Assembly: GCA_963851265.1 (NCBI GenBank)
Contig: CAWKNZ010000001.1
Span: 32,001-96,000, forward strand
DNA: 64,000 bases
Origin: an uncultured Gemmatimonadales bacterium
GTDB taxonomy: Bacteria; Gemmatimonadota; Gemmatimonadetes; Gemmatimonadales; Gemmatimonadaceae
Reading direction: 5' to 3'
Shown: one piece after another, positions 9,362 through 62,088 of the stretch
How the letters are laid out: every line of letters begins with the position of its first letter
Position numbering within the stretch: the stretch's first letter is position 1
Translations under genes and position numbers: made by a program
The notes under the pieces: generated by a model
Seen by the model: the letters and a program-made list of their open reading frames with translations, nothing else
Database searches by the model: none
What the model was told of the DNA's origin: nothing

Positions 9362-10077
9362 GCGCCTCCGAACTCTTCGGCCACCGCGCGCGCGTCGAGC
9401 GCGCCCGTGTACAACGCCATCCCCACCACCGCGCCCGCCGCCCCACACTCCGCGAGCACGCGAAGATCCTCCACCGACCCCACGCCGCCGGAGGCCAGCA
9501 CCGGCACCGTGGCCACCTCGACCACGTCCTCGATGAGTCGGCGGTCGACGCCCTGCATCTGCCCCTCCTTGTGCACCGCCGTGACGAGGAGTCCGGCCAG
9601 CGGCACGCCCGCCAGCTCCTCGACGAGGTCGGTGACGCGCTTCGTGAGCGTGCGTTCCCACCCGCGCGTCACGACCAGCCGCTCGCGCACGTCGGCCGCG
9701 AGGACGAGCGCGCCGGGAAAGCGGTCCGCCGTCTCGGCGAGCCAGTCCGGGTCCTCGACGCCCCGCGTCCCGACCACCACGGCGGCCGCGCCTAACGCGA
9801 GCACCCGGTCGACGGCGTCGGCGTCGCGCACGCCGCCGCCCACCTGCACCGCGTCGAAGCCGCCGTGCCGGACGAGCTCCTCCACCACGCCCGCGTTGGA
9901 GCCGCGCCCGGTGGCCGCGTCGAGGTCGACCACGTGCAGGCGGTGGAAGCCGAGCCGCGCCCACTCGCGCGCGGCGGCGAGCGGGTCGTCGAGGCGGACG
10001 CGCTCGTCGGCGTACGCGCCGCCGACGAGCTGCACGCACGCGCCCTCGCGCAGGTCGACCGCTGGAAGGACGATCAT
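9358..10077 (-). CDS. hisA: ProFAR isomerase
   Basis: '[13 protein letters not shown]', 'LHVVDLD', 'QVGGGVR', 'ASGGV'. Confidence 0.95.
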
Positions 10078-10706
10078 GGGTGCAGGCTGGTGAGGGACGC
10101 CACCCAGGCGGCCACGAACGCCACCCCCGGCGCGCTCGACTTCTCGGGGTGGAACTGCACGCCGACCGTCCCGCCCGCGCGCACCGCGGCCGGGAACCGG
10201 TCGCCCTCGTGCGCGCTCCACGCCGTCACGCACGCGGCGGGGTCGTCCGGCCGGCAGACGAAGCTGTTCGCGTAGTACGCCGTCTCGAGCCCCGACGCGG
10301 TGACGAGCGCGTCCGGCGCCGCGGCGTCGGCCGGCTCGACCGCGTTCCAGCCGATCTGCGGCACGCGCCGCGCCCGGATGCGCGTCACGCGCCCCGGCAG
10401 CAGCCCGAGGCCGGCGCCCGGCCCCTCGTCGCTGTCGTCGAAGAGGAGCTGCATGCCGAGGCAGATGCCTAACGACGGCAGCCCGCCGGCGAGCGCCGCG
10501 CGCATCGCGTCGCGCCCCGGCGCGAGCCGTTCGGCCGCCGCGGCGAAGGCGCCCACGCCCGGGAGCACGAGCGCGTCGGTGTGCTCGACGGCCGCGGCGG
10601 GGTCGGTCTCGACCCGCACCGTGGCGCCCGCGCGCTCGACCGCCTTGGCGAGCGAGTGCAGGTTGCCCGCGCCGTAGTCGAAGAGGGTGATCGTGGGCGG
10701 CGTCAT
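10074..10706 (-). CDS. hisH: Imidazole glycerol phosphate synthase glutaminase subunit
   Basis: 'DYGAGNL', 'LPGVGAF', 'GICLGMQ', 'QFHPEKS'. Confidence 0.95.
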   Translation of the reverse strand: MTPPTITLFDYGAGNLHSLAKAVERAGATVRVETDPAAAVEHTDALVLPGVGAFAAAAERLAPGRDAMRAALAGGLPSLGICLGMQLLFDDSDEGPGAGLGLLPGRVTRIRARRVPQIGWNAVEPADAAAPDALVTASGLETAYYANSFVCRPDDPAACVTAWSAHEGDRFPAAVRAGGTVGVQFHPEKSSAPGVAFVAAWVASLTSLHP

Positions 10707-11842
10707 CGGGTCAGCTCCGCCGTGAGCGCGTCGAGCACGCGCCGCTGCACGTCGTCGGGCCCCACGTTGAGCCGGAACGCCGAGCCCCCGCTCGCCGCGA
10801 GCGCGGGCACCGCGCGGGGCCGCGTCGTGGGCAGGCCGTCGAACACCCGCACGCCCACGCCGTGCCGCGCGCGCAGGCGGGCCGCGACCGCGCGCGCCTC
10901 GGGCACGGGCACGAAGACGAAGTGCGCCGCGGCCGGCGCGGGCTCGAGGCCCAGCGCACGCAGCGCCGCCACGAGCGCGTCGCGCTGCGCGACCGCGCGC
11001 CGCGCGTGCGTGCGCACCCACCCGAGCGCGCCCTCGCCCGGGCCGAGCGCGGCGCGCACCGCTGCCTCGGCGGGGAAGGTGACCTTGAACGGCCCGCGCG
11101 CCTTCTCCACCGCGCGCACCACGTCCGGGTGCCCCACCCCGTAGCCCACGCGCAGCCCCGCCAGCCCGAACGCCTTGCTCAGCGTGCGCGTCGCGAGCAC
11201 GCGCCCCCACCCCGGCGCCTCGGCCGTGAACACCTCCGCCGAGGCGCGTGCGTCGGCCCGCACGTACTCCGCGTACGCCTCGTCGAGGATCACGAGCCCG
11301 CGCGCGCCCGCGACCACCCGCTCGACGAGCGCGCGCGCGAGCGGCGTCGACGTCGGGTTGTTGGGCGAGCAGAGGTAGATCACCGCCGCGTCGGTGGCGA
11401 GTAGCGCCTCGGCATCGGCCTCGTAGTCGTCGCCCGCGAGCGGGACGCCGACCGGGGTCATCCCGTTGGCCCGCGCGTACGCGGGCACCATCGAGAACGT
11501 CGGCGCCGCGTGCGCGACCACGCCGCCGGGCTCGGCGAACGCGCGCAGCGCGCAGTCGATCACGTCGTCCGAGCCGCAGCCGGTCATCAGCGCGTCGGCG
11601 TCCACCCCCGCGTACGCGGCGAGCGGCGCCTTGAGCGCGTTGTTGTAGAGCGCGGGGTAGGTCGAGAGCATGGCCGCCGTGGCCGCGCTCCCCATCGCCG
11701 CGATCGCGTCGGGCGGCGCGCCCCACAGATTGATGGTGTCGCTCGCGTCGGCCACGCACGGCGACTCCGCCTCGCCCCCGGTCGCCGGCGCGTAGAGCGG
11801 GATCGCGTCGTAGCCCGCGCGGGGGGTGGCCGTCCCACTCAC
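10703..11842 (-). CDS. hisC: Histidinol-phosphate aminotransferase
   Basis: 'GSDD', 'CSPNNPT', 'DEAY', 'RTLSKAFGLAGLRVGY'. Confidence 0.93.
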   Translation of the reverse strand: MSGTATPRAGYDAIPLYAPATGGEAESPCVADASDTINLWGAPPDAIAAMGSAATAAMLSTYPALYNNALKAPLAAYAGVDADALMTGCGSDDVIDCALRAFAEPGGVVAHAAPTFSMVPAYARANGMTPVGVPLAGDDYEADAEALLATDAAVIYLCSPNNPTSTPLARALVERVVAGARGLVILDEAYAEYVRADARASAEVFTAEAPGWGRVLATRTLSKAFGLAGLRVGYGVGHPDVVRAVEKARGPFKVTFPAEAAVRAALGPGEGALGWVRTHARRAVAQRDALVAALRALGLEPAPAAAHFVFVPVPEARAVAARLRARHGVGVRVFDGLPTTRPRAVPALAASGGSAFRLNVGPDDVQRRVLDALTAELTR

Positions 11843-60617: not shown

Positions 60618-60648
60618 GTTACAGAAATCTACATATGAAATCTGTAAC
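60618..60648. promoter_or_regulatory. Candidate TetR operator
   Basis: GTTACAGA-N15-TCTGTAAC in an AT-rich patch; TACACT -10 on the minus strand at 60608-60603. Confidence 0.6.
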
Positions 60649-60666
60649 GTCCGCGTCTCGACTCGT

Positions 60667-62088
60667 TCAGCGGCCGGGGAGCGGGGCGTCGCCGGTGCGC
60701 GCGGCCTCACGCCGCGCCGCGTCCAGCTGCGCCCGCACCGCCGCGGGCCCGGTCCCGCCGGGCAGGTCGCGGTGCGCCACGCTCGCCTCGGGCGCGAGCG
60801 CGGGACCCGCGCCGGCGAGCGCCGGGTGCGCGGCGGCGTAGCGCGCGTTGCCCAACGCATCCAGCTCCACCCCGCCCTCCTCGGCCTCGCGCACGAGGGC
60901 GCCGACCGCGCCGTGGGCCTCGCGGAACGTCGCCCCGCGCCGCACCATGTGGTCGGCGAGGTCGGTGGCCATCATCGCCGGCGTGACCGCGGCGCGCAGC
61001 CGCGCGGTGTCGAAGGTGAGCTCGGCGACCGTCCCGGCCGTCGCGGGGAGCACGACGAGCGCGAGGTCCACGGCGTCGAACAGCGCGCGCTTGTCGTCCT
61101 GCAGGTCCTTGTTGTACCCGCTCGGCAGCCCCTTGAGCGCGCCGAGCATCGCCACCAGGTCGCCTAACGAACGGGCCGCCGCGCCGCGCGCGAGCTCCAG
61201 CGCGTCGGGGTTCCGCTTCTGCGGCATCATGCTCGACCCCGTCGAGAACCCGTCGCCGAAGCGCACGAACCCGAACTCGCTCGAGCCGAAGAGGATGAGG
61301 TCCTCGGCGAGCCGCGACAGGTGCGCCCCCATGAGCGCGAGCGCGAACAGCACCTCGGCCACGAAGTCGCGGTCGCCCACGGCGTCGATGCTGTTCTCGC
61401 TCACCGCCTCGAAGCCGAGCGCGCGGCGCAGCGACTCGCGCGGGACCGGGAAGGCCGAGCCCGCGATGGCGCCGGAGCCTAACGGCATCGTCGACGCGCC
61501 GCGGGCGGCCCCGGCCAGCCGCCGGCGGTCGCGCGCGAGCGGCCACACGTGCGCCAGCAGCCAGTGCGCCGCCGAGACGGGCTGCGCGCGCTGCAGGTGC
61601 GTGTAGGCGGGCATGAGCGCGTCCTGCAGCCCCTCGGCGCGCCCGACGAGCACCGCCTGCAGCTCGCGCGCGGCCGCGTCCACCCGGCGGCAGGCGTCCA
61701 TCGCCCAGAGCCGGGTCGCGGTCGCCACCTGGTCGTTGCGGCTGCGCCCCGTGTGCAGCTTGCCCGCCGCGGGTGCGCCGTCCAACACCTCGTGGAGCAG
61801 CCGGTCGATGAACGTGTGCACGTCCTCGTCGGCCGCGGTCGTCGGCTCGCCGGCCGCGATCCGCTCGCCGACCCGGTCGAGTCCCGCGACGATCTGGTCG
61901 CGCTCCGCCGGGGTGAGCACGCCGCCCTCGGCCAGCGCGGCGGCCCACGCCTGCGACAGGCGGATGTCGTGCGGCCAGAGGCGGAGGTCGACGCCGATGC
62001 TGCGGTTGATCGCGTCGAGGAGGGGGGAGGGGCCGCCGGCAAAGCGGCCACCCCAGAGCTTGTGGCCGGGGGACGGGACGGAAGTCAT
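60667..62088 (-). CDS. argH: Argininosuccinate lyase
   Basis: 'KLWGGRF', 'LHTGRSRNDQ', 'YTHLQRAQP', 'GSSMMPQKRNPD', 'YNKDLQ'. Confidence 0.95.
   Translation of the reverse strand: MTSVPSPGHKLWGGRFAGGPSPLLDAINRSIGVDLRLWPHDIRLSQAWAAALAEGGVLTPAERDQIVAGLDRVGERIAAGEPTTAADEDVHTFIDRLLHEVLDGAPAAGKLHTGRSRNDQVATATRLWAMDACRRVDAAARELQAVLVGRAEGLQDALMPAYTHLQRAQPVSAAHWLLAHVWPLARDRRRLAGAARGASTMPLGSGAIAGSAFPVPRESLRRALGFEAVSENSIDAVGDRDFVAEVLFALALMGAHLSRLAEDLILFGSSEFGFVRFGDGFSTGSSMMPQKRNPDALELARGAAARSLGDLVAMLGALKGLPSGYNKDLQDDKRALFDAVDLALVVLPATAGTVAELTFDTARLRAAVTPAMMATDLADHMVRRGATFREAHGAVGALVREAEEGGVELDALGNARYAAAHPALAGAGPALAPEASVAHRDLPGGTGPAAVRAQLDAARREAARTGDAPLPGR

Follow-up and report, generated by a model that had tools for sequence, protein, structure and literature searches.

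A short, asymmetric DNA word, CGTTAGGC, built on the heptamer GTTAGGC, is written into the chromosome of an uncultured Gemmatimonadales bacterium far more often than base composition or codon usage predicts, and its distribution supports a signal carried at the level of the DNA, with no codon or strand effect. The word was noticed in a stretch of 64,000 nucleotides (hereafter the window), which corresponds to C1:32001-96000 of genome G000, a 4.60-Mb, 12-contig assembly with 73-74% guanine plus cytosine (GC). A first-pass annotation made from the letters of the window had counted 24 copies of GTTAGGC, 21 of them the full octamer, and exact matching bore out both numbers. In 100 dinucleotide-preserving shuffles of the window, CGTTAGGC appeared 1.02 times on average and at most 5 times, and GTTAGGC 2.18 times and at most 7 times, with none of the 100 shuffles reaching 21 or 24 copies, respectively. 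Our tentative reading, which we hold to be quite possible though not established, is that YGTTAGGC is a lineage-specific genome word of the same type as the DNA uptake sequence (DUS) and the uptake signal sequence (USS), serving in DNA uptake or self-recognition.

Genome-wide excess of the word

Across G000, CGTTAGGC occurs 1396 times (708 forward, 688 reverse) and GTTAGGC 1762 times, which corresponds to a mean spacing of about one copy per 2.6 kb of native chromosome. The octamer is the most over-represented of the genome, with a 24-fold excess over the 58.3 copies expected by an order-3 Markov model (z = 175). A codon-aware null was built from 12 within-gene permutations of synonymous codons, which preserve the proteins and the per-gene codon counts, surplus TTA included; the coding DNA of G000 holds 1024 copies of CGTTAGGC where this null predicts 39.4 +/- 7.5 (26-fold). 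The enrichment thus survives both kinds of null model that the first-pass annotation had called for, rather than vanishing under them. Nor is TTA equally frequent in other settings, as 992 of the 1267 in-frame TTA codons (78%) sit within GTTAGGC and TTA elsewhere is about as rare as ATA or AGA.

The sequence logo of the word is compact, with C (79%) or T (13.5%) at position -1, followed by GTTAGGC and by a +1 position where T is disfavoured (5%) and otherwise G, A or C is found. Beyond these positions only codon periodicity is visible and the word is therefore not part of a longer repeat, which rules out a repeat or mobile element surrounding it. The one-step neighbour CGTTGGGC is itself enriched 2.6-fold in G000.

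The word fills tolerant contexts on both strands

Gene calls from a simple codon-likelihood finder (3574 genes, 86% of the genome covered) were used to assign each of the 1762 GTTAGGC copies to a context. The largest class, with 992 copies, is read in sense with TTA in frame (NNG TTA GGC), while 195 copies are antisense where the gene reads CCT AAC (Pro-Asn), 67 are antisense where it reads CTA ACN (Leu-Thr) and 24 are in sense as GTT AGG (Val-Arg). A further 298 copies fall in spacers, and word density is alike in genes and spacers. The word also supplies stop codons, with 110 copies providing TAA (GCC TAA C) and 76 providing TAG, which amounts to 27% of all 413 TAA stops and 11% of all 713 TAG stops.

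When expressed as the share of available sites that are filled, the word occupies 9.3% of sense x-Leu-Gly sites (992/10641) and, as the full octamer, 16.8% of [APST]-Leu-Gly sites (779/4630), compared with 13.7% of antisense x-Pro-Asn sites (195/1419). The rate is 3.7% for antisense Leu-Thr via CTA (67/1826) and 0.7% for Val-Arg, where two rare codons are needed (24/3324). The roughly 3:1 ratio of sense to antisense copies arises because Leu-Gly is far commoner than Pro-Asn, and a signal tied to the transcribed strand was rejected since coding opportunity accounts for the ratio. Filling is similar in plus-strand and minus-strand genes, at 8.9% and 9.7% for Leu-Gly and 13.7% and 13.8% for Pro-Asn.

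Replication was considered in the same way. The first-pass annotation had suggested looking for strand bias against the replichore; GC skew was too noisy and the 12 contigs preclude a direct replichore map, so that local gene-orientation bias served as a proxy for the direction of replication, and with this proxy no skew was seen. The genome-wide odds ratios were 1.04 and 0.66, neither significant, and a 1.5-fold preference hinted at in one region of C2 did not hold genome-wide, which led us to reject replication polarity.

The spacing of the copies was compared with 200 random draws of an equal number of sites from the full set of Leu-Gly and Pro-Asn opportunities. Of the observed gaps, 2.1% are shorter than 300 bp, against 8.6 +/- 0.8% in the draws; 6.8% against 13.7 +/- 0.9% are shorter than 500 bp, and 10.4% against 12.5 +/- 0.7% exceed 8 kb. 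Copies thus repel each other within about 500 bp, and a single copy per few hundred bases seems to be sufficient. Because the word fills antisense Pro-Asn sites, stop codons and spacers, and uses both strands equally per opportunity, we regard it as a DNA-level signal. The selection on such a signal that had been proposed from the window alone is supported by the use of all tolerant contexts, by the codon null and by the retention at silent sites described below.

The word is maintained yet turns over between species

To follow the word through time, approximately 80-100 kb of C1 was aligned to the sister species G001 and G004 at 75-89% identity, and the leucine codon at orthologous Leu-Gly sites was compared. 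Where G000 has TTA within the word, TTA was kept at 13 of 27 sites in G001 and 18 of 26 in G004. The optimal codon CTC was kept at 130 of 179 and 181 of 233 sites, respectively, the minor codon CTG at 4 of 29 and 4 of 43, and TTG at 3 of 13 and 3 of 16. TTA within the word is therefore retained about as well as the optimal leucine codon and far better than the minor codons. Where only one species has the word, the others mostly carry CTC, CTG or TTG followed by GGC, and sometimes Val; in the his operon, 4 of 12 word sites are common to at least three of four species. Silent-site retention combined with these species differences indicates that the word is actively maintained yet turning over.

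Within G000, density climbs with local GC, from 2.0 copies per 10 kb where GC is 68% to 6.2 where it is 78%, and also with GC at third codon positions (GC3; rho 0.57-0.64). Both trends are the opposite of what base composition predicts.

A patchy distribution across the phylum

A genome was defined as rich when its word copies exceeded twice those of a reversed-word control. By this measure 10 of the 31 nearest genomes are rich, comprising all five of the window's genus, four from other genera of the family and one from a genus of another family. Among 301 genomes of the phylum 12 are rich, of which 10 are among the 70 of the window's family and two, both from one genus, among the 125 of a second family. 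None is rich outside these two families, and the remaining genomes of the 301 reach at most about 1.7 times the control and mostly fall below it. These tallies include the unpublished genomes G011, G079, G118 and G199 (word-poor) and G327 and G328 (counted for the variant word alone), which enter the denominators only.

Density among the rich genomes ranges from one copy per 8 kb to one per 0.8 kb, the latter end being illustrated by G012 with 6360 copies in 5.1 Mb, where the word varies at its edges only, as (T/G)CGTTAGG(C/T). The sharpest contrast lies within a single genus, where G236 has 3896 copies, G293 has 4141 and G289 has 66. Further rich genomes are G000-G004, G012 and G300, as opposed to the poor G005-G007 and G009. 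Genera of 62-64% GC likewise have the word as their top octamer, which shows that it is no by-product of extreme GC. A similar patchiness is seen in named public records. The ArgG protein of G000 has its best match there in a Gemmatirosa sp. metagenome-assembled genome (MAG) at 93% identity, the other 79 matches being nearly all Gemmatimonadaceae or Gemmatimonadales MAGs, and four or more copies are present in 11 of these 80 argG neighbourhoods, most of the rest having none.

Some other words were seen in passing. Possible local octamers occur in word-poor relatives (L123, a Gemmatimonadales MAG; L119, L105, L118 and L147), for example ACGTTCGA with 19 copies in 21 kb against 2.3 expected, all in small samples, and a word of the CAGTCACC type occurs 11 times against 1.2 expected in word-poor argG neighbourhoods, a sample too small to judge. 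In one genome, tandem 7-bp units containing CGTTGGG (G338:C2:177593-179621) inflate the count of the variant word.

Likeness to uptake sequences

On the reading of the word as an uptake or self-recognition signal, some sequence-reading machinery would keep a short double-strand signal at approximately one copy per 2.6 kb, wherever proteins tolerate it, and the writing would proceed mostly through recoding of Leu-Gly as TTA-GGC. A component of a DNA-uptake or recombination route would prefer fragments that bear the word, word-bearing alleles would be favoured both in import and in fixation (molecular drive), and a single copy would suffice for a fragment. We infer that uptake or recombination is the step at which the word is read.

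DUS of the Neisseriaceae, for which the minor pilin ComP is the reader, and USS of the Pasteurellaceae (PMC3630211, PMC3868556 and PMC3458573) are likewise short, non-palindromic and present in hundreds to thousands of copies on both strands and in coding DNA. The word further resembles them in its restriction to related genera, its widely varying density, its mildly enriched near-cognate variant, its turnover between species and its co-occurrence with ComEC and type IV pilus genes. Of the known types of iterated word, the anatomy of DUS and USS fits best, given the strand symmetry, the single copy per fragment, the turnover together with a near-cognate variant, the clade restriction with varied density and the scarcity in DNA of atypical composition. 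In contrast to DUS and USS, no dialects were seen for the word, the same form being used in all rich genera, and no specific receptor was found among the candidates tested; the word is also written against a very strong GC codon bias and is identical with the integron core.

Predicted DNA-uptake hardware is present throughout the order. G000 has nine pilin-like genes, of which a FimT-like minor pilin was profiled across the relatives. The gene, a stand-alone GspH/FimT-like one at C7:452369-452929, encodes a protein that ends in GRVR, which conforms to GRxR, the DNA-binding motif of Legionella FimT as described in part of PMC8897410. In 19 of 21 aligned sequences from across the order, an ending of the form SR(L/T/V)GRx(R/K) lies no more than three residues from the C-terminus, and the G012 and G005 sequences carry the motif and continue past the stretch examined. 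This conservation suggests a candidate DNA receptor of the FimT type in a phylum without reported competence.

Several observations weigh against a role in uptake. ComEC is found in 31 of 31 relatives, rich and poor, and so does not track the word; the FimT-like pilin is found in 29 of 31, again rich and poor, and was not found in rich G002 and G008, and among the 21 aligned FimT-like sequences no residue separates rich from poor. No dialects emerged, as CGTTGGGC exceeds its control only in word-rich genomes and is a satellite of the main word; a 400-kb sample of word-poor G005 yielded no strong word particular to that genome, and no recurrent alternative word was present in 53 pooled argG neighbourhoods of at least 15 kb. 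Word density does correlate with synonymous similarity between species (raw rho 0.41 and 0.58), but the correlation is gone once GC3 is controlled (t = -0.3 and 1.96), so that density was rejected as a predictor of gene flow and offers no independent evidence tying the word to it. Among the literature matches listed, none reports natural transformation in the phylum and none concerns iterated words there; the four spellings of the word turn up in two papers, one about integrons and one about an unrelated topic (bladder cancer, by title), and no description of it as a genome word was found. Finally, a role in uptake leaves the identity with the integron core as a coincidence.

Could the word organize the chromosome?

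A less likely alternative is that an abundant chromosomal protein, of the nucleoid-associated, condensation, segregation or occlusion type, binds the word; such a protein would need evenly spread sites, and chromosome function itself would select for them. The orientation-independent use of the word, the repulsion within about 500 bp, the slight deficit of gaps over 8 kb and the similar density in genes and spacers would all suit such a protein. So would an outlier among the gaps, a sharply bounded word-free one of 45,086 bp at C1:182876-227962 (150876-195962 in window coordinates, outside the window) that holds mnmG, parA, parB and mnmE; the next largest word-free gap is 22 kb and the chance maximum about 19 kb. 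The zone is nearly word-free in two sister species as well, its aligned parts holding two copies in G004 and one in G001.

In contrast, the density around parB is normal in three other word-rich genera, and exclusion from the partition region is therefore no general rule. The genes of the zone have lower GC3 than the comparison value (0.91 vs 0.95) and lower third-position identity (0.64 vs 0.71-0.74), and the lower GC3 fits older foreign DNA equally well. On these two grounds, the normal parB surroundings elsewhere and the GC3, functional exclusion from the parAB/origin region was rejected, and our tentative view is that the zone consists of DNA imported long ago or is a region with little recombination. 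In addition, we know of no nucleoid protein that drives an exact 7-8-mer to a 26-fold excess against codon usage.

The integron core

The first-pass annotation had also remarked that the word equals the integron core GTTRRRY, without attC structure in the window, and both parts of this remark were upheld. As described in part of PMC12901181, attC and attI sites carry an R' box GTTRRRY and an R'' box RYYYAAC, with a defined crossover point, and in the aadB attC given there as an example a TAA stop arises in the way that the inverse form GCCTAAC yields TAA stops here. GTTAGGC fits GTTRRRY and its complement fits RYYYAAC, and only 16 of 16384 heptamers fit (approximately 1 in 500 reverse-complement pairs); with so few that fit, we regard the match as unexplained rather than dismissing it. 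In the window, no inverted partner lies within 150 bp of any of the 24 copies, and tested for membership in attC sites these copies show no inverse core 50-150 bp away, lie outside cassette arrays and are not beside intI. True attC sites elsewhere in G000, moreover, end in the same octamer.

These sites were recognized as eight GCCTAAC...GTTAGGC pairs, 66-149 bp apart, among the 1762 copies. All eight fold as long imperfect hairpins closed by the boxes, and six of them have the full octamer, C at -1 included, as both of their boxes. Four pairs lie in a cassette array at C10:188-215 kb, and one lies 1.3 kb from an intI remnant on C6. The array (C10:188900-215025; also C6:1-2300) carries DUF5615/PIN-like, DUF433, BrnT, DUF4926/DUF6883, HicB-like and TonB_C genes and is broken up by transposase genes of the IS481 type, of the DDE type and, in two identical copies, of the IS110 family. 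The cassette genes were considered as a source of the protein that reads the word and set aside, as they are of toxin-antitoxin type, TonB_C or insertion sequences (IS), with no evident DNA reader. The intI gene of G000 is split (C6:3005-6044), with model residues 2-265 and 260-313 about 2 kb apart, and the insertion between them encodes, on the opposite strand, a large serine recombinase with the domains Resolvase, Recombinase and Zn_ribbon_recom. The integrase gene has a stop in G001 and lies in three frames in G012, and no integron integrase was found in G008 and G018.

In word-poor genomes, dense runs of the word are cassette arrays only. G021:C95, for example, has 23 co-oriented copies in 20 kb; most are embedded in a common repeat of about 35 nt, and their typical spacing is 500-650 bp. 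Integrase genes or fragments adjoin such runs in G021:C80 and G019:C26. An integron integrase above the family cut-off is present in 18 of the 31 relatives, namely 5 of the 10 rich and 13 of the 21 others, indicating that enrichment does not follow the integrase.

It is against this background that the genome copies might be understood as lone R boxes for IntI or a related tyrosine recombinase, attG-like landing sites or decoys, which we consider improbable. The match with the core, the eight hairpin pairs, the confinement of dense runs to cassette arrays and the frequency of integrases among the relatives speak for it, and R boxes share the heptamer with the word and, in G000's own attC sites, usually the octamer as well. 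Unlike integron boxes, however, the window copies and most genomic copies are lone, without a partner box, hairpin, L box, cassette or nearby integrase, and neither the logo nor the window (0/24) shows an L box or second box at dispersed copies. Integrase presence does not follow the word, with intI broken in G000, G001 and G012 and not found in G008 and G018. Furthermore, to judge from the known crossover, cassette insertion and excision would leave no footprint that spreads the word, and landing sites in housekeeping genes would be harmful.

A different and rather remote idea is that the match with the core is no coincidence because a word-reading factor evolved or was acquired to recognize the R box, of which each attC offers two inverted copies. 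In a first version, uptake or recombination machinery would fish for cassettes and drive the word through the chromosome as a by-product; in a second, a mobile, cassette-borne factor that binds the R box would be responsible, and integron spread would explain the patchy distribution.

Methylases, nucleases and translation

No candidate tested as a reader of the word tracks it, whether IntI, RecC, the AddAB-type nuclease, ComEC, five methylase families or the FimT-like pilin. The methylases bear on the reading of the word as the target of a methyltransferase, whose excess would arise through methylation-tied repair bias, as proposed for the cyanobacterial word HIP1 (GCGATCGC). HIP1 is likewise a hyper-abundant, lineage-specific octamer inside genes. 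It is a palindrome linked to cognate methylases, and its function is not established. The word differs from HIP1 in its asymmetry and in that none of four methylase families is common to the rich genomes tested. In its asymmetry, its length of 7-8 bp and its single A, the word does resemble the sites of type IIG, type III and bacteriophage-exclusion (BREX) methylases, and G000 encodes a 1141-aa protein with an Eco57I/MmeI-type methyltransferase domain followed by a 759-aa SNF2-type helicase (C7:579717-585511).

The Eco57I-type protein is, however, shared by 30 of the 31 genomes examined from the order, rich and poor alike, with a similarity that follows kinship and not the word; it appears to be distributed like a core gene, unlike a mobile restriction system, and its specificity may have been altered. 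As for the four other families, PF02384 (N6_Mtase) is represented in G000 by out-of-frame fragments only (type I HsdM-like remnants at C7:771474-772495 and C9:923-1858), was not found in G236 and is weak in G293 (E 5e-6). PF01555 was not found in rich G000, G236 and G300, PF00145 in none of rich G000, G236, G293 and G300, and PF02086 not in rich G000 and G300. In G000 and G300, three of the four families are without a match; G236 and G293 show at most weak matches to two, and word-poor G289 has all four. Restriction-modification targets are, moreover, usually avoided rather than enriched in genomes. We therefore think it quite doubtful that a methylase accounts for the word.

Still less likely is a Chi-like role, in which the word would tame a RecBCD or AddAB helicase-nuclease at broken DNA ends. 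The Chi site of Escherichia coli (GCTGGTGG) and the FtsK-orienting polar sequences (KOPS) are likewise octamers over-represented in core DNA, the density of the word is about that of E. coli Chi, and G000 has two adjacent genes with PDDEXK_1 (AddAB-type) nuclease domains. Chi and KOPS are strongly co-oriented with replication, and their readers are RecC or AddB, and FtsK. The word, unlike them, shows no co-orientation with the presumed direction of replication; a search for RecC gave one positive among 31 relatives and none in G000, and the PDDEXK_1 nuclease, present in word-poor G009 and G289, was not found in G236 or G012, which are among the genomes richest in the word.

An effect at the level of RNA or translation, either bldA-like decoding of TTA or the ending of stray translation at high GC by out-of-frame and antisense stops, could invoke the 992 of 1762 copies with TTA in frame and the +1-frame TAG and antisense TAA that the word also gives, but is close to refuted, as such models leave the fixed bases around TTA (Y G on its 5' side, GGC on its 3' side) unexplained, the other 770 copies are antisense, in spacers, at stops or in another frame, Pro-Asn is filled more often than Leu-Gly, a tRNA-Leu(UAA) gene is present in G000, and word-poor G009, G013 and G024 are low in the reversed control too, a word with the same AT content, which suggests high GC there.

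Of the mechanisms that had been listed from the window alone, those resembling uptake signals and DNA-binding protein sites remain candidates, while Chi, given RecC, AddAB and the lack of skew, and a methylase, given families that are not shared, are disfavoured.

Copies in the window

By our gene calls, 19 of the 24 window copies lie in sense with TTA in frame (NNG-TTA-GGC, Leu-Gly), in keeping with the earlier statement that most force TTA in Leu-Gly pairs; one is antisense, three are at stop codons and one is in a spacer. Their hosts are housekeeping genes, including the his operon, argG, argH, ispG, an ATP-dependent ligase and molybdopterin dehydrogenases. All of the positions given in the first-pass annotation fall at the right places, with two off by one base (true starts 57672 and 59785).

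The first five copies, all CGTTAGGC on the minus strand and in sense with TTA in frame, belong to histidine biosynthesis. They lie at 9790..9797 (GCG TTA GGC) in a His_biosynth gene of the hisA/hisF type (9358-10077); at 10467..10474 in a glutamine amidotransferase gene of the hisH type (10074-10706), where the orthologous site is TTA in G003 and CTC in G001 and G004; at 12856..12863 in the histidinol dehydrogenase gene (11839-13383), kept in G003 and G004 and replaced by TTG in G001; and at 13425..13432 and 14148..14155 in hisG (13380-14267), both kept in G001 and G004. Before the first of these copies, window positions 1-9789 fall in a 17-kb word-free gap (C1:24812-41789), parts of which align to the sister species at only 73-77% identity, where the his region reaches 82-89%.

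A PAS histidine kinase gene (18355-20493) has two minus-strand copies of CGTTAGGC, one at 18353..18360 whose TAG is the stop codon and one in sense with TTA in frame at 20191..20198, and the single spacer copy, also CGTTAGGC on the minus strand, is at 21898..21905, just upstream of an oxidoreductase gene (20574-21872). Six plus-strand copies of CGTTAGGC, again in sense with TTA in frame, follow at 25050..25057 in a molybdopterin-binding dehydrogenase subunit gene (23879-26245), at 31243..31250 in a second such subunit gene (29139-31370), at 32883..32890 in a gene for a MobA-like nucleoside triphosphate transferase (32537-33127), and at 35053..35060, 35575..35582 and 36004..36011 in a third molybdopterin-binding subunit gene (33846-36131). 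On the minus strand, CGTTAGGC is in sense with TTA in frame at 37297..37304 in the ATP-dependent DNA ligase gene (36151-37899), at 40706..40713 in a metallo-beta-lactamase-fold gene (40082-41254), at 55184..55191 and 55535..55542 in ispG (GcpE; 54758-56131), both kept in G004, and at 61162..61169 and 61477..61484 in the argininosuccinate lyase gene (60667-62088).

The remaining copies include the three that lack C at -1, all on the plus strand. The heptamer at 51236..51242 (G at -1) supplies with its TAG the stop codon of a 1606-aa GGDEF/HD/AAA/TPR gene (46420-51240), that at 57672..57678 (T at -1) is in sense with TTA in frame in an amine oxidase gene (57493-58923), and that at 59785..59791 (T at -1) is antisense in an aldo/keto reductase gene (59650-60549), which reads CCT AAC (Pro-Asn). 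The amine oxidase gene also ends in the word, as CGTTAGGC on the minus strand at 58918..58925 reads GCC TAA CG on the other strand and provides its TAA. The three stop codons that had been noted in the window (TAG at 18353 and 51236, TAA at 58918) are thereby accounted for.

Implications

In practical terms, the word marks native as opposed to imported DNA, which aids binning and the detection of horizontal transfer, and sites containing TTA and TAA in rich genomes call for caution in annotation since they are not random. The occurrence of a word equal to the integron core in a lineage full of integrons provides a concrete and unexpected hypothesis; if true, recognition of the R box would be the first tie between integrons and natural transformation or some other system that reads DNA.

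The sharp contrast within one genus, with approximately 4000 copies in two genomes and 66 in a third, means that whole-genome comparison should name the reading protein. Complete word-rich genomes are available for this purpose, for example G300 (4 contigs, 100% complete), and cultured members of the Gemmatimonadaceae exist. Hyper-iterated words with a known reader are few, namely DUS, USS, Chi and KOPS, and each opened an area of DNA biology. A word that is maintained against the codon bias of a 74% GC genome, and that claims 78% of its TTA codons, is among the strongest cases, and it occurs in an abundant and little-studied phylum of soil bacteria.

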